A stretch of DNA of 64,000 nucleotides from an uncultured Planctomycetales bacterium (GTDB lineage Bacteria; Planctomycetota; MHYJ01; JACPRB01), in assembly GCA_964526305.1 (NCBI GenBank), contig CAZGKV010000002.1, positions 9,599 through 73,598 on the forward strand. The letters run 5' to 3'. The first letter of the stretch is position 1. Every line of letters starts with the position of its first letter. The notes beneath the pieces are model-generated. The model had not been told where the DNA came from. It ran no database searches and saw only the letters and a program-made list of their open reading frames with translations. Made by a program: the position numbers and the translations under genes. Below, piece after piece: positions 13,609 to 20,415 of this stretch.

Positions 13609-13995
13609 TCATCGGTTGTTCACGAGTCTGCGAATCCCCTGTCGCAGCACCGGTACGTTGAAGTTGAGGATCAAGCCCAGAGGATTCCCCGTCATCCTCA
13701 AGTCGGTCAGCAATGGAGCCTCATGCACCGGTACGACTCTCTCGATGGCTTTCACCTCGACTATCACGGTTTCTTCCACGAGCACGTCCACACGATATCC
13801 GCAAGCGAGTCTCACTCCCTTGTACTCGACCGGAATCTCCAGTTGACGTCGGAAACGCAGATCCCTGAGACTGAGTTCGCGGCACAAACATTCCTCGTAC
13901 GCGGACTCCAGCAGACCCGGCCCAAGCGCGCGGTGCACCTCGATCGCGGCACCGATCACCTCATTGCTGATCCTGTTGATCTCCGACACCTCCAT
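13609..13995 (-). CDS. GxxExxY family protein (PD-(D/E)XK-like)
   Basis: [31 protein letters not shown] matches the GxxExxY signature. 128 aa, typical size. Confidence 0.85.
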
Positions 13996-14115: not shown

Positions 14116-14916
14116 ATGGCGTTTCTGCTCCTCATCATCCTTGCGCCTCAGGACTACGAGAAGAAGGCCCTCGAGAGAATCAACACCCATCGACGCCTCG
14201 CGGGTCTGGATCCGGTCACCCTGGATTCCGCGCTCTCGAAGGGGTGTTCGGCGCACGCGGCATACCTGGTGAGGAACGAGGGGCATCCCTCCACCGACGG
14301 CCTCGGCGCGCACGACGAGAATCCAAAGCTTCCCGGCTACTCTCCGGAAGGAAAGAAGGCGGCCGGCGCCTCCGACATCGGTTATCAGGATCCGGTGACC
14401 TCGGTCGATGCCTGGATGTCCGGCCTCTTCCATCGAGTTCCGATTTTGGATCCGCTACTCAAGAAGGTGGGTGTCGGCTATGCGAAGGGGGGAAAGTGGG
14501 GTTGGGTCTCGGTCTTGGACGTGGTCAGCGGTCGAGGGCCCGGGAAGCCGAGAGACCCCGTCCTCTATCCGGCGCCCAAGCAGAAGGACGTTCCCTTGAC
14601 CTTGGGAAACGAACTTCCGTCGCCGGTGCCGGACGATTCCGACAAGCGCGCCGGGTATCCGGTCACCATCACGTTCAGAGAGGAAGTGATGGTGAAGGGC
14701 GTGATCGCCACGATGCAGGACGAGACGGGGAAGGGATTGGATGTGTGGCTCTCCACTCCCGAGCACCCGGCAGACTCGCGCTATCAACGAAACACGATCT
14801 GTCTCATCGCGAAGGATCCCTTGCGCGCCCGGACGACCTATACGATTACCGCGCAGGGAAACGTCGCCGGCAAGCGATGGACGAAGACATGGACCTTTAC
14901 CACGGGCGGGCGGTAG
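14116..14916 (+). CDS. CAP (SCP/PR-1-like, YkwD-type) domain protein
   Basis: ALERINTHRRLAGLDPVTLDSALSKGCSAHAAYL...DAWMSGLFHRVPILDPLLKKVGVGYA: CAP domain hallmark residues. N-terminal hydrophobic segment. Confidence 0.75.
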   Translation: MAFLLLIILAPQDYEKKALERINTHRRLAGLDPVTLDSALSKGCSAHAAYLVRNEGHPSTDGLGAHDENPKLPGYSPEGKKAAGASDIGYQDPVTSVDAWMSGLFHRVPILDPLLKKVGVGYAKGGKWGWVSVLDVVSGRGPGKPRDPVLYPAPKQKDVPLTLGNELPSPVPDDSDKRAGYPVTITFREEVMVKGVIATMQDETGKGLDVWLSTPEHPADSRYQRNTICLIAKDPLRARTTYTITAQGNVAGKRWTKTWTFTTGGR

Positions 14917-14954: not shown

Positions 14955-15218
14955 ATGACGATCGAGAGTCGCCGAGCGGAGTGCTTGCGGCGGAAGGACA
15001 CCTTGGCCGACCTCATGGAGGAGGTCCGGCCTTATGTCGGGATGTCGCCGGAACGCAGGGACGAGCTGATCCAGCAGATCTCTCGGTGGGTCCTCCAGTT
15101 GTTTCTCGATCTCGGCAGCCGGCCTTGTTTGGCCACGCCGGACGCGCTGCCCGAATCCAGTCGGCGGATCTGGAGCCGACTGATGGAAGAACACCGGCGT
15201 GCCGGAAGCTCCCATTGA
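14955..15218 (+). CDS. small hypothetical protein (87 aa), candidate partner/antitoxin of the downstream nucleotidyltransferase
   Basis: ORF with 20-nt overlap into the next gene. No family recognised. Confidence 0.45.
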   Translation: MTIESRRAECLRRKDTLADLMEEVRPYVGMSPERRDELIQQISRWVLQLFLDLGSRPCLATPDALPESSRRIWSRLMEEHRRAGSSH

Positions 15219-15768
15219 TCTCGCCACGTTGGCCAGGCGCCTGGCCGACGCGCTGGAAGCGGCGGGAGTTCCCTATGCCATAGGCGGTGCGTTGGCCTAT
15301 GGACAGTGGGCGGTTCCCCGCGCCACGGCCGACGTCGACATTACGCTCTTTCTCGACGAACCGGAGTGGCCGAAGGCACTGGATCTTCTCCAGCGGGAGG
15401 GAGTGGAGGGGGACGGTCGGGTCGCCCTCACGGAGCTTCAGGACCGCGGTTCATGCAGATTGAAGGGGGGGGCGTTCTATGTCGATCTGTTCGTCCCGTC
15501 CATTCCCTTCTATTCCGCCGCAAGGAGTCGAATCGTCTTGCGTCCTCTCGTAGGTCGCCCCGCCGGCTTTCTCACCGCGGAAGATCTTTCCGTATTCAAG
15601 ATGCTCTTCTTTCGCCCGAAGGACTTGGTCGACATCCGATACATGCTCGCGGTGCAGGGGGGGGCATTCGATCGATTCTACGTGCGGCATTGGTTGGCCG
15701 AGATGGTCGGCGAGTCCGACGAGCGTGTCCTCCGTTGGGACGAACTATGCCGCGAGGTGCCTGCCTGA
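15199..15768 (+). CDS. Pol-beta superfamily nucleotidyltransferase (AbiEii/MenT/DUF1814-like)
   Basis: hG[GS]x9-13Dh[DE] NTase motif: YAIGGALAYGQWAVPRATADVDITLF. 189 aa. Overlaps the upstream small ORF and overlaps the hemE start by 22 nt. Confidence 0.6.
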   Translation: MPEAPIDLATLARRLADALEAAGVPYAIGGALAYGQWAVPRATADVDITLFLDEPEWPKALDLLQREGVEGDGRVALTELQDRGSCRLKGGAFYVDLFVPSIPFYSAARSRIVLRPLVGRPAGFLTAEDLSVFKMLFFRPKDLVDIRYMLAVQGGAFDRFYVRHWLAEMVGESDERVLRWDELCREVPA

Positions 15769-16787
15769 GCCCAGACGAATCGCGTCTGCTTCGCGCCGCT
15801 CGACGATTGCCGGTGGACCGAACCCCCGTCTGGTTCATGCGCCAGGCGGGCCGTTTCCTGCCGGAGTACCGCGACCTCCGCAAGCGCTACTCGATGCTCG
15901 AACTTTGTACGAACGCGGATCTTGCGGCGCAGGTCACGATGCTTCCGATCCGTCTTCTGCCGGGTCTCGATGCCGCCATCGTCTTCTCGGATCTCCTGCT
16001 GCCGCTTCAGCCGATGGGGCTCGAGATCCGGTTCGCTGCGTCCGAGGGGCCGCAGGTCCTGAATCCGATCGCCCACGAGTCCGATGTCGAGCGCCTGCGT
16101 CCCCTGGAACCCGAGCAGGATCTTCGCCCGGTTCTCGACGCCATTCGGATTCTTCGCCGCGAACTCCAGGTTCCGCTCATCGGTTTCGCGGGCGCGCCGT
16201 TCACCCTCGCGAGTTACGCCATCGAGGGCGGCTCGTCCCGCCATTACCTCAAGACGAAGGGCTTGATGACGAGCCATTCTCCCGTGTGGTCGAGACTCAT
16301 GACCAAGCTGGCGGAGGCTGCGCTTCGCCATCTTCGCGCGCAAATCGAGGCCGGGGCGCAGATGGTCCAGCTCTTCGACAGCTGGGTGGGGGCCTTGGGG
16401 CCCCGCGACTACGAGGAGTTCGTCCTTCCGTATTCGCGAATCGTCTTCGAAGGCCTTCGAGACACCGGTGCTCCCACCATTCACTTCGGGACCGGGACGG
16501 CCTCGCTTCTCGAACTCATGAAGCGGGCCGGTGGGGACGTGATCGGACTGGACTGGCGCGTGAATCTGGCCGAGGCATGGCTGCGCCTTGGAGAGGTCGC
16601 CGTGATGGGGAACCTCGACCCCGCGATGCTTCTGGCTCCCCGGGAGGCGCTCGTGAGTCGGGTGGATTCGATCTTGGATTCGGCGGGGAGGAGGGCCGGA
16701 CACATATTCAACCTGGGGCATGGCGTGCTCCCCGAGACGCCGGTGGAGAATCTCCTGGCCGTCCTTGAGCGGGTCCACTCGCGATGA
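15747..16787 (+). CDS. hemE: uroporphyrinogen decarboxylase
   Basis: DRTPVWFMRQAGRFLPEY signature. Full-length similarity pattern. Start at ATG 15747 rather than the track's 15306 extension, which reads through the previous gene. Confidence 0.9.
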   Translation: MPRGACLSPDESRLLRAARRLPVDRTPVWFMRQAGRFLPEYRDLRKRYSMLELCTNADLAAQVTMLPIRLLPGLDAAIVFSDLLLPLQPMGLEIRFAASEGPQVLNPIAHESDVERLRPLEPEQDLRPVLDAIRILRRELQVPLIGFAGAPFTLASYAIEGGSSRHYLKTKGLMTSHSPVWSRLMTKLAEAALRHLRAQIEAGAQMVQLFDSWVGALGPRDYEEFVLPYSRIVFEGLRDTGAPTIHFGTGTASLLELMKRAGGDVIGLDWRVNLAEAWLRLGEVAVMGNLDPAMLLAPREALVSRVDSILDSAGRRAGHIFNLGHGVLPETPVENLLAVLERVHSR

Positions 16788-17617
16788 AGACGGCGGTTCT
16801 TCTGATGGCGCATGGATCCCCGGACTCCCCGGACCAGATGGAGGAGTACCTCCGGCGGGTGATGGCCCCCCGCGTTCCGAAGCCGGAGTTCGTGGGGGAG
16901 ATGGCGGAGAGATACCGGAAGATCGGCGGCCGGTCACCCCTCCTGGAGATCACTCGCGCCCAGGCTCATGCGCTGGCATCGAGGATCGGCCTGCCGGTCT
17001 ACGTGGGGATGAGGCATTGGCATCCCCTCATCCGGGAGGCGGTGGAGGAAGTTCGGCGCGATGGGGCACGCAAGATCGTCGGACTCGCGCTCGCCCCCCA
17101 GTACTGCCCGGTCAGCGTCGGGGCGTATCACCGCGCCCTCATCGATTCGCGGGAGGATTTGGAGGTGGTGCTTGTCGGCAGTTGGGCGACCGAGCCCGGC
17201 CTCCTCGACTGCTGGGCAGCTCGGTTGCGACCGGGGGCGAACGTCCTGTTCACCGCGCACAGCGTCCCGGTCGATCAGGCGGGTCCATACCCCCAGGAGG
17301 TCCGGGAGACGATTCGCGGGATCCTGGACCGAGTCGAGGTGCGAGCCCATTTCGCCTGGCAGAGCCGGAGTCCCTCTCCGAATCCGTGGTTGGGACCGGA
17401 GATCCAGGAGATTCTCCCCTCCTTGAAGGGGCAAGAGGTGACGGTCGCCCCGATCGGTTTTGTCGCCGAACATGTGGAGACGCTCTACGACCTGGACATT
17501 CTGCACCGGGCGCAGGCGGAGCGGCTCGGGATTCGCTGGAAGCGGGTAGCGATGCCGAACGCCGATCCGATGCTGATCGAGGCGATGGCCTCGGCCTTGA
17601 AGTTTCATCTGAGCTGA
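16784..17617 (+). CDS. hemH: ferrochelatase
   Basis: ATGA overlap with hemE. MAHGSPDSPDQMEEYL, RHWHP, FTAHSVP, GFVAEHVETLYDLDI: ferrochelatase motifs. Confidence 0.9.
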   Translation: MKTAVLLMAHGSPDSPDQMEEYLRRVMAPRVPKPEFVGEMAERYRKIGGRSPLLEITRAQAHALASRIGLPVYVGMRHWHPLIREAVEEVRRDGARKIVGLALAPQYCPVSVGAYHRALIDSREDLEVVLVGSWATEPGLLDCWAARLRPGANVLFTAHSVPVDQAGPYPQEVRETIRGILDRVEVRAHFAWQSRSPSPNPWLGPEIQEILPSLKGQEVTVAPIGFVAEHVETLYDLDILHRAQAERLGIRWKRVAMPNADPMLIEAMASALKFHLS

Positions 17618-17721
17618 ACGACCCTCCATGGGCCTATTGACTCGCTCCGGTTCCGGCCGATATCATTGAAGGCGCTTTTTGCCATGCCCAAGACAACGAT
17701 GATAACAGAAACGAGAATAAG

Positions 17722-18414
17722 ATGCAGCTCTCCGTACGCGAAACGGCTCGTCTACTGAAGGTATCCGAAACTACCGTATATAGATGGATTCGCAAGGGGT
17801 CGATCCCGGCCAGCCAAATCAACGACCAAGTTCGGCTCAGCAGGGCTGAGCTGCTCGAATGGGCGTCCTCGCACAATATCCCCGTCTCCCCCGAGATGTT
17901 CCAGGAACCGGAAGGCGCTGACGGCCAAGTCAGTGGCTTGTTCCAGGCGCTGAAGGCGGGGGGAATCCTCTACGGAATCAAGGGAGCGGACAAACCCGCT
18001 GTCCTTCATGGGGTTGTCGCGGCCATCCCGTTTCCCGAGGATATGGACCGCCAGTTCCTTTGCCAAATTTTATTGGCACGGGAGGCACTGGGATCGACCG
18101 CCATCGGGAACGGAATCGCGATCCCACACGTCCGTCATCCGATCGTGATGCAACTGACGGAGCCGATGATTACCCTCTGCTTCCTGCAGCGGGCCATAGA
18201 TTTCGGTGCTCCGGACGGGAAGCCCGTGGACAAGCTATTCATGCTTTTCAGCCCGACGGTCAAACTGCATCTTCAACTTCTGTCCAAGCTCATTTTCCTA
18301 CTTCGAAGTCCGGAGTTCTGGGGCGCCTTGGTGCGAGCGGCGCCGGCTGAGGAGCTCCTATCCATCGTCCAGAGGACGGAGGGCTCGGTCCCGCGCACCG
18401 GCAAGGCCTCCTAG
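17722..18414 (+). CDS. fusion regulator: N-terminal MerR/excisionase-type HTH + C-terminal PTS EIIA(Ntr)/PtsN-like domain
   Basis: HTH: LSVRETARLLKVSETTVYRWIRKGSIPAS. EIIA type-2 domain with the phosphorylatable His context GNGIAIPHVRH. Stop 18414 lies 4 nt before the next gene. Confidence 0.8.
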   Translation: MQLSVRETARLLKVSETTVYRWIRKGSIPASQINDQVRLSRAELLEWASSHNIPVSPEMFQEPEGADGQVSGLFQALKAGGILYGIKGADKPAVLHGVVAAIPFPEDMDRQFLCQILLAREALGSTAIGNGIAIPHVRHPIVMQLTEPMITLCFLQRAIDFGAPDGKPVDKLFMLFSPTVKLHLQLLSKLIFLLRSPEFWGALVRAAPAEELLSIVQRTEGSVPRTGKAS

Positions 18415-18417
18415 GCC

Positions 18418-20415
18418 ATGCCCCTGAGCCTGGTTCTCCTGGCCGCCGGGGCGATGGCGTTCAGCGGCATCCCCGGGCTCCTCTTCCACTGGCGCTCAAG
18501 AATCGGCCAGTGGATTGCAATGGTCTTCGCAGTCGGCGCGGCCGGGGCCGGGCTCATGGGAGCGTTCGGAGGGATCTTCCAGGCTGAGGCGAGTCTCCGC
18601 GTGCCGTGGCCACTCCCTGGCGCAGAACTGAACGTCCGACTCGATGCCTTGAGCGGTTTTTTCCTCGTCCCCATCTTCCTCATCGGAGGCCTGGGCTCAA
18701 TCTATAGCTTGGGGTATTGGAGCCAACAGGATCGGCCTCGGACCGGCAGGCAGGTGCGGTTCTTCTACGGAGTCCTCGTCGCGGGGATGGCGGTCCTCGT
18801 CGTTGCGAAGAACGGCATTCTCTTCCTCTTCGGTTGGGAGGCAATGGCGCTTGCCTCCTTCTTCCTCATTACCGCCGAATCCCACGATCCCGAGGTGCGC
18901 AAAGCGGGATGGCTCTACTTGATGCTGACCCATGTCGGGACGCTTACTCTCTTCGCGGTGTTCGCGCTGCTGCGGAAGGCGACTGGGTCCTTCCTGCTGA
19001 GACCACTCGGGGTCGAAGAGGCCGGACTCGGGACGTTGATGCTCCTGTTCCTCCTCATGCTCATTGGATTCGGCATGAAGGCGGGCTTGATGCCTCTCCA
19101 TGTCTGGCTTCCGAGCGCGCACGCCAGCGCCCCGAGCCACGTTTCCGCCCTCATGTCCGGGGTGGTGATCAAGATGGGCATCTACGGATTGGTTCGATTC
19201 CTGGGGATGATGCCGCAGCCGCCCGTGAGCTGGGGGGCGATCCTCCTGCTCCTGGGGACGATCAGTGGAGTCGTCGGCGTCTTGTTCGCGATCGGACAGC
19301 ACGACCTCAAGCGTCTCTTGGCCTATCACAGCGTCGAGAATGTCGGCATCATCGTCATGGGGTTGGGTGTCGCGATGCTCGGTCGGTCGTTGGGACGACC
19401 GGATTGGGTAATCCTGGGGTTGGCCGGTTGTCTCCTCCATGTTTGGAACCATGGGTTGTTCAAGGCCCTCCTCTTCCTGGGGGCGGGCTCGGTCATTCAC
19501 GCAGTTCATACTCGTGAAATCGATCGGATGGGCGGCTTGGCCAAGTCGATGCCTCGAACCGCACTCCTGTTCTTGATCGGAGCGGTTGCGATTTGCGGGT
19601 TACCTCCCCTCAACGGGTTCGTGAGCGAACTGCTCGTGTACATGGGATTGTTCCGAACGCTGGGCATCGGCGCGGGGCCGTCCTGGGTCCAGGCGGCGCC
19701 GGCCGCTCCCGCATTGGCTCTGATCGGCGCTCTGGCCGTGGCGTGTTTCGTCAAGGTCTTCGGTGCGGTTTTCCTCGGGAGCGCTCGAAGCCACGATGCG
19801 GAGGGCGCCCGCGAGTCTTCCTGGCCTATGGTCGGAGCCATGGGTGTTCTGGCCGTCTGCTGCGTCGCCATCGGGGTGGCGCCCGTCCTCGTGGGGCCTG
19901 TCCTCGACCGAGCCGCTGCGGCATGGACGAATCAGCCGTTACCCGGCGTCGGCTCGCTCGCCCCGTTCCGGCCGCTGACCTTTCTCGGCGTTGGACTCCT
20001 CGGAGCCATCGCGGCGGGGTGGGCGCTTCTCTCTCGTGTCCGCACTTCGGGCGGAGTGGGAACCTGGGATTGCGGATATGCGGCACCGACCGCGAGGATC
20101 CAATACACGTCCTCCTCCTTCGCCGACACGTTGGTGGGCCTGTTCCGCTGGGTGCTGCGTCCGCGCGTCCATCGTCCTCATCTCGAGGGAATCTTCCCCG
20201 GGGGCACCCGATTCGCGAGTCGCGTGGACGACACGGTTCTCGACGGCCTACTGGCGCCGGCGGCGCGCGCGGCCGAGAAGGCCGTCGGGCGTGTGAAGGT
20301 ATTCCAACAGGGGAGTTCGCAGCGATACATCCTGTACGTTCTCGTCGCGCTCGTTGGGCTGCTGCTTTGGTCTTTCCCGCTGGAGCGCCTGTTCCTCAAG
20401 CTTTTTTCGAGGTGA
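18418..20415 (+). CDS. NuoL/MrpA/HyfB-like antiporter-type membrane subunit of hydrogenase-4/Ehr-like complex
   Basis: 665 aa, about 16 TM helices. WLPSAHASAPSHVSALMSGVVIK and HSVENVGIIV motifs typical of NuoL/HyfB proton-translocating subunits. Confidence 0.85.
   Translation: MPLSLVLLAAGAMAFSGIPGLLFHWRSRIGQWIAMVFAVGAAGAGLMGAFGGIFQAEASLRVPWPLPGAELNVRLDALSGFFLVPIFLIGGLGSIYSLGYWSQQDRPRTGRQVRFFYGVLVAGMAVLVVAKNGILFLFGWEAMALASFFLITAESHDPEVRKAGWLYLMLTHVGTLTLFAVFALLRKATGSFLLRPLGVEEAGLGTLMLLFLLMLIGFGMKAGLMPLHVWLPSAHASAPSHVSALMSGVVIKMGIYGLVRFLGMMPQPPVSWGAILLLLGTISGVVGVLFAIGQHDLKRLLAYHSVENVGIIVMGLGVAMLGRSLGRPDWVILGLAGCLLHVWNHGLFKALLFLGAGSVIHAVHTREIDRMGGLAKSMPRTALLFLIGAVAICGLPPLNGFVSELLVYMGLFRTLGIGAGPSWVQAAPAAPALALIGALAVACFVKVFGAVFLGSARSHDAEGARESSWPMVGAMGVLAVCCVAIGVAPVLVGPVLDRAAAAWTNQPLPGVGSLAPFRPLTFLGVGLLGAIAAGWALLSRVRTSGGVGTWDCGYAAPTARIQYTSSSFADTLVGLFRWVLRPRVHRPHLEGIFPGGTRFASRVDDTVLDGLLAPAARAAEKAVGRVKVFQQGSSQRYILYVLVALVGLLLWSFPLERLFLKLFSR

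Follow-up and report, generated by a model that had tools for sequence, protein, structure and literature searches.

To what kind of system do two overlapping genes belong that lie directly in front of the heme-biosynthesis genes hemE and hemH in an uncultured Planctomycetales bacterium? The pair was found in a 64,000-nucleotide stretch of contig CAZGKV010000002.1 (GenBank assembly GCA_964526305.1, positions 9,599 to 73,598), hereafter the window. It consists of a small open reading frame (ORF) and a gene for a nucleotidyltransferase (NTase). A first-pass annotation had read the two genes as a toxin-antitoxin (TA) pair of AbiEii/MenT-like architecture, and this interpretation is supported by the analysis reported here. 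We consider it probable, at about 0.68, that the pair is a TA module of the MenAT1 type, in which the NTase would act as the toxin and the small protein as its antitoxin. Mycobacterium tuberculosis MenT1, the tRNA-modifying toxin to which the NTase is closest in both profile and fold, belongs to the AbiEii family (PF08843) and likewise has a small antitoxin encoded upstream. An NTase belonging to a housekeeping family, or a small ORF lacking conservation, would have pointed elsewhere; neither was found, because the closest relative is MenT1 and the NTase and its partner are strictly conserved together.

Neither ORF is a chance reading frame, since the NTase has 401 or more homologues and the small ORF occupies the same position and strand in all of 80 independent genomic NTase loci, the set over which pairing and residue conservation were counted throughout. 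The ORF list and the sequence give four co-directional genes (small ORF, NTase, hemE and hemH) with successive overlaps of 20, 22 and 4 nucleotides (nt), an unbroken chain that agrees exactly with the coordinates in the first-pass annotation. The same layout, with products of 87, 189, 346 and 277 residues, appears in public gene calls on two contigs of the same species from other samples (L085 and L086); on one contig the gene caller began the small ORF and hemE further downstream, for products of 67 and 316 residues. The hemE start at 15747 is secure. Its product matches Pfam URO-D (E 1e-124) from residue 11, corresponding to profile position 3, and scores 398 bits against TIGR01464, and no further in-frame ATG, GTG or TTG occurs between 15747 and the start of that domain.

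The identity of the NTase emerges from its family. Single-sequence searches of the PDB with the NTase and with the small protein returned nothing useful. The homologues of the NTase are 45-73% identical and very uniform in length, and an exhaustive profile search collected 197, 3,137 and 12,109 clusters (at 50% identity) at E-values of 1e-30, 1e-10 and 1e-3, respectively. A 38-member profile ranks M. tuberculosis MenT1 first among solved structures (8AN4, whose annotation reads AbiEii/AbiGii toxin family protein), with 145 positions aligned at E 1.3e-8; hhalign of the NTase family against MenT1 gives a probability of 86.8%. The AlphaFold model of the window NTase, with a predicted local distance difference test (pLDDT) score of 96.5 and a predicted template-modelling score (pTM) of 0.91, has the bi-lobed fold of the MenT type, and over its full length it is structurally most similar to MenAT1/MenT1 (Foldseek E 6e-10, template-modelling (TM) score 0.72). 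Thus, by sequence profile and by fold, the closest solved relative of this family is MenT1.

Existing family models capture the clade poorly. Among 38 NTase relatives, weak or borderline Pfam matches were obtained to DUF6036 (28), AbiEii (PF08843; 24), NTP_transf_5 (20) and DUF2204 (6). At least two relatives, P0050 and P0078, exceed the PF08843 gathering cut-off of 22.5 bits (26.2 and 25.2 bits), and MenT1 scores 36.6; the window NTase does not reach this threshold. Because its members scatter around the thresholds of several NTase models in Pfam, the clade has no family model of its own.

The residues required for catalysis in MenT1 are conserved in the window NTase. It satisfies the motif I signature of the MenT/AbiEii toxins, G[GS]-x(9-14)-DxD, and likewise carries the acidic residue of motif II, the lysine of motif III and the aspartate of motif IV. 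The first-pass annotation had described motif I as GG-x(13)-DVD; the motif is present, but its spacing is GG-x14-DVD. In motif I, Thr43 and Asp47 are found in 80/80 loci and Asp45 in 79/80; Asp96 of motif II is invariant (80/80), and each of the motif III/IV residues is found in 79/80, the sole exception being a truncated copy. Profile alignment with MenT1 pairs Asp45 and Asp47 with D41 and D43, Lys134 with K137, and Asp145 with D152, and it places Gly30-Ala31 against the GG of MenT1. Thr43, in the sequence PRATADVD, aligns with T39 of MenT1, in PRFTRDVD; that is, it stands at the phospho-acceptor position, two residues before the first catalytic aspartate. In the A1 set of family sequences this position is either Ser or Thr, and the corresponding phospho-acceptor of MenT3 is S78. 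In MenT1, T39 is the phospho-acceptor, and D41 and D43 bind metal (PMC10435456, PMC11375011); the substitutions D41A, K137A and D152A each abolish toxicity (PMC10435456), and T39 becomes auto-phosphorylated upon MenA1 binding (PMC11375011).

The two genes travel together. A hidden Markov model (HMM) built from close homologues detected, in 72/80 loci, a matching small ORF that ends where the NTase begins, and a broader HMM placed a small ORF immediately upstream of the NTase in every one of them; no NTase locus lacked it. The two genes overlap in 76/80 loci, most commonly by 4 nt, and the 20-nt overlap of the window is common to its close relatives (L082, L083, L084, L085 and L086). The loci are distributed over Myxococcota, Planctomycetota, Binatia, Gammaproteobacteria, Acidobacteriota and other metagenome-assembled genomes (MAGs), two of which carry two copies each. 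Other than the pair itself, the loci have no flanking gene family in common, and the pair is kept in all of them in neighborhoods that lack hemE. The module is therefore an autonomous unit that occurs in many unrelated genomic contexts. In addition, the pairwise distances of the small ORF and the NTase co-vary (Mantel r 0.79, 0/999 permutations), as is expected for co-inherited partners, although this is no proof of contact.

The most telling evidence for a TA-like module is an asymmetry in how the pair decays. Six small-ORF homologues were examined from the other direction: two belong to intact pairs (L090 and L092), two adjoin degraded NTases and two lack an NTase. The intact small ORF at L175:2001-2891 precedes an NTase that a frameshift has split into two fragments; at L174:2001-2512 an intact small ORF is followed by an NTase reduced to profile positions 138-188. 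At L173:2001-2264, L088:2501-2755 and L089:969-1223 the small ORF is an orphan: no NTase follows it, and the genes downstream are unrelated and convergent. Such a pattern would be expected of an NTase that does harm in the absence of its partner and of a partner that is harmless by itself. The degraded NTases of L174 and L175 could be genuine pseudogenes or products of long-read assembly indels, and part of the asymmetry could thus be assembly error.

Several individual loci deserve mention in their own right. At L173, 23 nt separate the small ORF from the end of an unannotated upstream gene of 184 residues. At L033:3959-7207, the NTase frame runs on into amidohydrolase and allantoicase genes as an ORF of 1082 residues, apparently owing to a frameshift near the NTase C-terminus, and at L057:4004-4315 the NTase ORF is cut to 103 residues. 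At L090:2266-5282, the module directly follows a HicB-like antitoxin gene and is itself followed, after about 1.2 kb, by a Tn5-type DDE transposase, which suggests a TA or mobile-element island.

The small protein belongs to a family that is undescribed in the family libraries and the literature we searched. Searched by itself, it has no match in Pfam, NCBIfam, PADLOC or the PDB, in agreement with the first-pass annotation, which had placed it in no known family. The contigs that bear the closest NTase homologues also carry four close homologues of the small protein (54-66% identity). A profile of 74 small-ORF sequences has no Pfam match, its members show no consistent helix-turn-helix (HTH) match, and MenA1 is absent from its matches to all PDB chains at E<=10. 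The family comprises at least 215 clusters of about 83 residues. No Pfam domain occurs in any of them, and nearly all lack a name or are labeled hypothetical; one JGI entry is labeled YhbP/UPF0306. Its members share the approximate pattern LPxW...E...R..(S/T)PE(E)R.....CR.A......RPD..R.L...DPxPxS....L.RLR. The window protein and its closest relatives have Ser43 in place of the family Cys (72/80) and Ala64 in place of the Pro of 'DP' (67/80); the replacement of two well-conserved residues places the window protein in a divergent sub-clade. The AlphaFold2 model, made from a five-sequence alignment, has four helices, one of them long and central. Foldseek found nothing below E 4 with this model, whose modest pLDDT of 70 makes the fold search uninformative.

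The closest known system is MenA1-MenT1 of M. tuberculosis (Rv0078B-Rv0078A; PDB 8AN4, 8AN5 and 8RR5; PMC10435456, PMC11375011). The toxins share fold and catalytic set, though only about 20% identity, and in both systems a small helical protein is encoded immediately upstream. The upstream proteins themselves differ. MenA1 has 68 residues in one long and one short helix (PMC10435456), and no similarity to it is detectable in the window partner, whose family has longer members (about 83 residues), four predicted helices and the conserved core 'PE(E)R...CR...DPxPxS...RL'. The MenA1 family is also tiny, with 21 homologues in a FlaGs survey (PMC10435456), compared with the 215 or more clusters of the window partner family, which are spread over environmental phyla. 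More distant are AbiEi-AbiEii, MenA3-MenT3 and MenA4-MenT4 (DUF1814, PF08843), which are type IV/VII TA or abortive-infection systems of the same NTase superfamily, with the same four motifs and an antitoxin gene upstream. Their antitoxins (AbiEi/COG5340, including MenA3 and MenA4) combine an N-terminal winged HTH with a C-terminal domain, as in the 195-residue AbiEi chain 6y8q_A, unlike the shorter window partner with its lack of library and HTH matches. DUF6036 (PF19502), DUF2204 (PF09970) and NTP_transf_5 (PF14907) are uncharacterized nucleotidyltransferases of similar size with no described function or partner; the window NTase matches none of them, and no mention of DUF6036 was found in the literature we searched.

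How might such a module work? Its homology to MenT1 makes the addition of nucleotides to tRNA 3' ends the most likely activity of the NTase, an activity that would arrest translation; for a TA module of this kind we regard a tRNA 3'-end substrate as an even proposition. The helical small protein would then be the cognate antitoxin, most likely neutralizing the NTase by binding it directly. Because Thr43 is invariant at the position of MenT1 T39, the small protein may in addition push Thr43 toward the bound nucleoside triphosphate, so that the NTase would phosphorylate and thereby inactivate itself. Antitoxin-induced auto-phosphorylation has been shown for MenA1 and inferred for MenA3 (PMC11375011). 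Its occurrence here, even granting a TA module, is a tentative proposal to which we give clearly less weight than to the tRNA substrate. Much the same holds for a further reading, namely that the small protein, without structural relation to the known MenT antitoxins, makes up a fourth class of them and likewise acts by inducing auto-phosphorylation of Thr43, which we think possible rather than likely.

A number of points weigh against a TA module. The NTase by itself has no match in Pfam, NCBIfam or PADLOC even at E<=1, and its identity to MenT1 is low. The antitoxin role is drawn from position only, because no resemblance of the small protein to MenA1 is detectable in sequence or fold, and the co-variation of the two partners may reflect co-inheritance alone. 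A tblastn search of sequenced plasmids and phages found no copy of the module. It is also unusual for a toxin gene to be joined to essential heme genes by an unbroken chain of overlaps. Nor are all MenT homologues toxic: overexpressed MenT2 had no detectable effect on the growth of M. smegmatis (PMC10435456). Finally, relatives of the NTase lie near the thresholds not only of AbiEii but also of DUF6036, DUF2204, NTP_transf_5 and Aminoglyc_resit, some above and some below.

The best surviving alternative is that the NTase modifies a small molecule, i.e., an antibiotic or a metabolite, in the manner of ANT(2'')-Ia or LnuA, with the small protein in an accessory or regulatory role. However, ANT(2'')-Ia and LnuA are structurally less similar to the window NTase than MenT1 is, and these enzymes, which act on small-molecule acceptors, have no conserved small partner gene. 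We consider this explanation improbable, although it is the least so of the alternatives.

The position of the pair raises a second alternative, namely that it is a non-toxic housekeeping or regulatory module tied to heme biosynthesis, with the NTase modifying a component of the heme pathway and the two genes serving as leader genes of hemE-hemH. The chain of overlaps that joins the pair to hemE and hemH speaks for such a role, as does the retention of this arrangement on same-species contigs from different samples. Beyond this lineage, however, the association disappears. Neither hemE, hemH nor any other neighbor from the window lies within 4 kb of the module in the 80 other genomes, and conversely the module is absent from the 4 kb around each of the 80 nearest hemE loci (51-61% identity, from metagenomes), whereas 47/80 of them have hemH near hemE. 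The closest relatives of the module, with NTases 72-73% identical, have convergent folD-fhs genes downstream or adjoin unrelated genes, a 58% identical NTase lies among unrelated genes, and not one neighbor of the module is conserved. The first-pass annotation had called the placement in front of heme genes odd; the placement is real, but it is confined to the lineage of the window. With no linkage outside this lineage, we rejected a function in the heme pathway, and a heme-tied role for the pair is very unlikely. The position beside the heme genes appears to be incidental, and it is simplest to suppose that the module arrived directly in front of a hemE-hemH pair that was already there, whose hemE start now lies inside the 3' end of the NTase gene. 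There is no compositional sign of a recent insertion, as the GC content of the module (0.58-0.67) is in line with that of its neighbors.

The least probable alternative reverses the roles, with the NTase as antitoxin or modifier and the small protein as toxin, by the logic of the HEPN-MNT systems, in which the NTase is the antitoxin and nucleotidylylates the toxin. No known function attaches to the small protein, which leaves room for this logic; yet neither a HEPN domain nor any Pfam match was found in the small protein, it persists alone or beside decayed NTase genes, as a toxin should not, the NTase is never found without it, and the NTase exceeds the MNT antitoxins in size and has motifs III and IV of the MenT type, all of which makes the reversal highly improbable. 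Membership in the HEPN-MNT systems proper, defined by a HEPN partner with an Rx4-6H motif and a small MNT, was likewise rejected for want of a HEPN match and in view of the larger NTase with MenT motifs. A CBASS CD-NTase, which would show a cGAS/DncV-like fold and an adjacent effector gene, was rejected as well.

A TA module in this position may nevertheless be expressed together with its neighbors. The pair is probably co-transcribed with hemE-hemH, judging from the sequence, because no promoter or terminator separates the genes and only 38 nt lie between the small ORF and the upstream gene for a CAP-domain protein; by the same spacing, the module may also be co-transcribed with that gene. 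A promoter scan found none upstream of the pair and no sigma-70-like promoter or terminator between the genes; the sole sigma-70-like site in the region, at 17637-17666, lies beyond hemH, just upstream of the gene at 17722. No convincing operator-like inverted repeat was found in or around the 38-nt gap. It is conceivable, if very doubtful, that the module was recruited to head the hemE-hemH operon as its leader through its presumably autoregulated promoter and through the hand-over of ribosomes across the overlaps; were this so, the output of heme-biosynthesis enzymes would be tied to the state of the TA system. Between this co-option and a fourth class of MenT antitoxin, the latter is the more probable.

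Table 1. Coordinates of the candidate module, its motifs and its neighbors in the window.
Feature	Position	Strand	Details
Small ORF	14955-15218	+	ATG start, 87 residues; candidate antitoxin, family about 83 residues
NTase gene	15199-15768	+	GTG start, 189 residues; Pol-beta fold, MenT1-like; candidate toxin
Overlap of small ORF 3' end and NTase start	15199-15218	+	20 nt; NTase GTG at 15199
NTase motif I, G29 G30 ... R41 x T43 x D45 V46 D47	15283-15339	+	metal-binding DxD
NTase motif II, D96 in 'VDLFV' (third carboxylate)	15484-15486	+	aligned with MenT1 'VVDLLF'
NTase motifs III/IV, K134 ... R139 x K141 D142 x x D145	15598-15633	+	alignment to MenT1
Overlap of NTase and hemE	15747-15768	+	first 22 nt of hemE within the NTase gene
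hemE (uroporphyrinogen decarboxylase)	15747-16787	+	ATG start, 346 residues; neighbor outside the module
hemH (ferrochelatase)	16784-17617	+	277 residues; neighbor outside the module; overlaps hemE by 4 nt
PD-(D/E)XK_3 nuclease-superfamily gene	13609-13995	-	E 1e-38; divergent to the CAP/SCP gene
CAP/SCP-domain protein gene	14116-14916	+	weak C-terminal Ig-like Big_5 match, below the Pfam cut-off
HTH_17 + PTS EIIA-2 domain fusion protein gene	17722-18414		directly precedes the hydrogenase/Mrp-like cluster
Cluster resembling a group-4 hydrogenase or Mrp-type complex	18418-20415 onward		

The wider surroundings offer a few further observations. The ferrochelatase is short, and its 277 residues align to 314 of the 317 positions of the Pfam profile, which indicates internal deletions relative to a typical HemH; it passes TIGR00109, and its scores against two ferrochelatase subfamily models of NCBIfam stay under their cut-offs. 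On the same-species contig L085, the cluster that begins at 18418 in the window has the domains Proton_antipo_M, NADHdh, Complex1_49kDa and Oxidored_q6. At gathering thresholds, Rfam yielded no family match anywhere in the window.

MenAT/AbiE nucleotidyltransferase TA systems with diverse antitoxins are an already known kind, and MenT/AbiEii is a major family of TA and phage-defense toxins. What appears to be new is a compact clade of MenT1-like toxins overlooked by current family models, together with a widespread antitoxin-like family. Because the Pfam, NCBIfam and PADLOC models miss it, the window NTase is called hypothetical by annotation pipelines. Since the threonine never varies although the partner has no detectable relation to MenA1, the family would be well suited to testing cleanly whether these NTases are generally regulated by auto-phosphorylation that an antitoxin induces.
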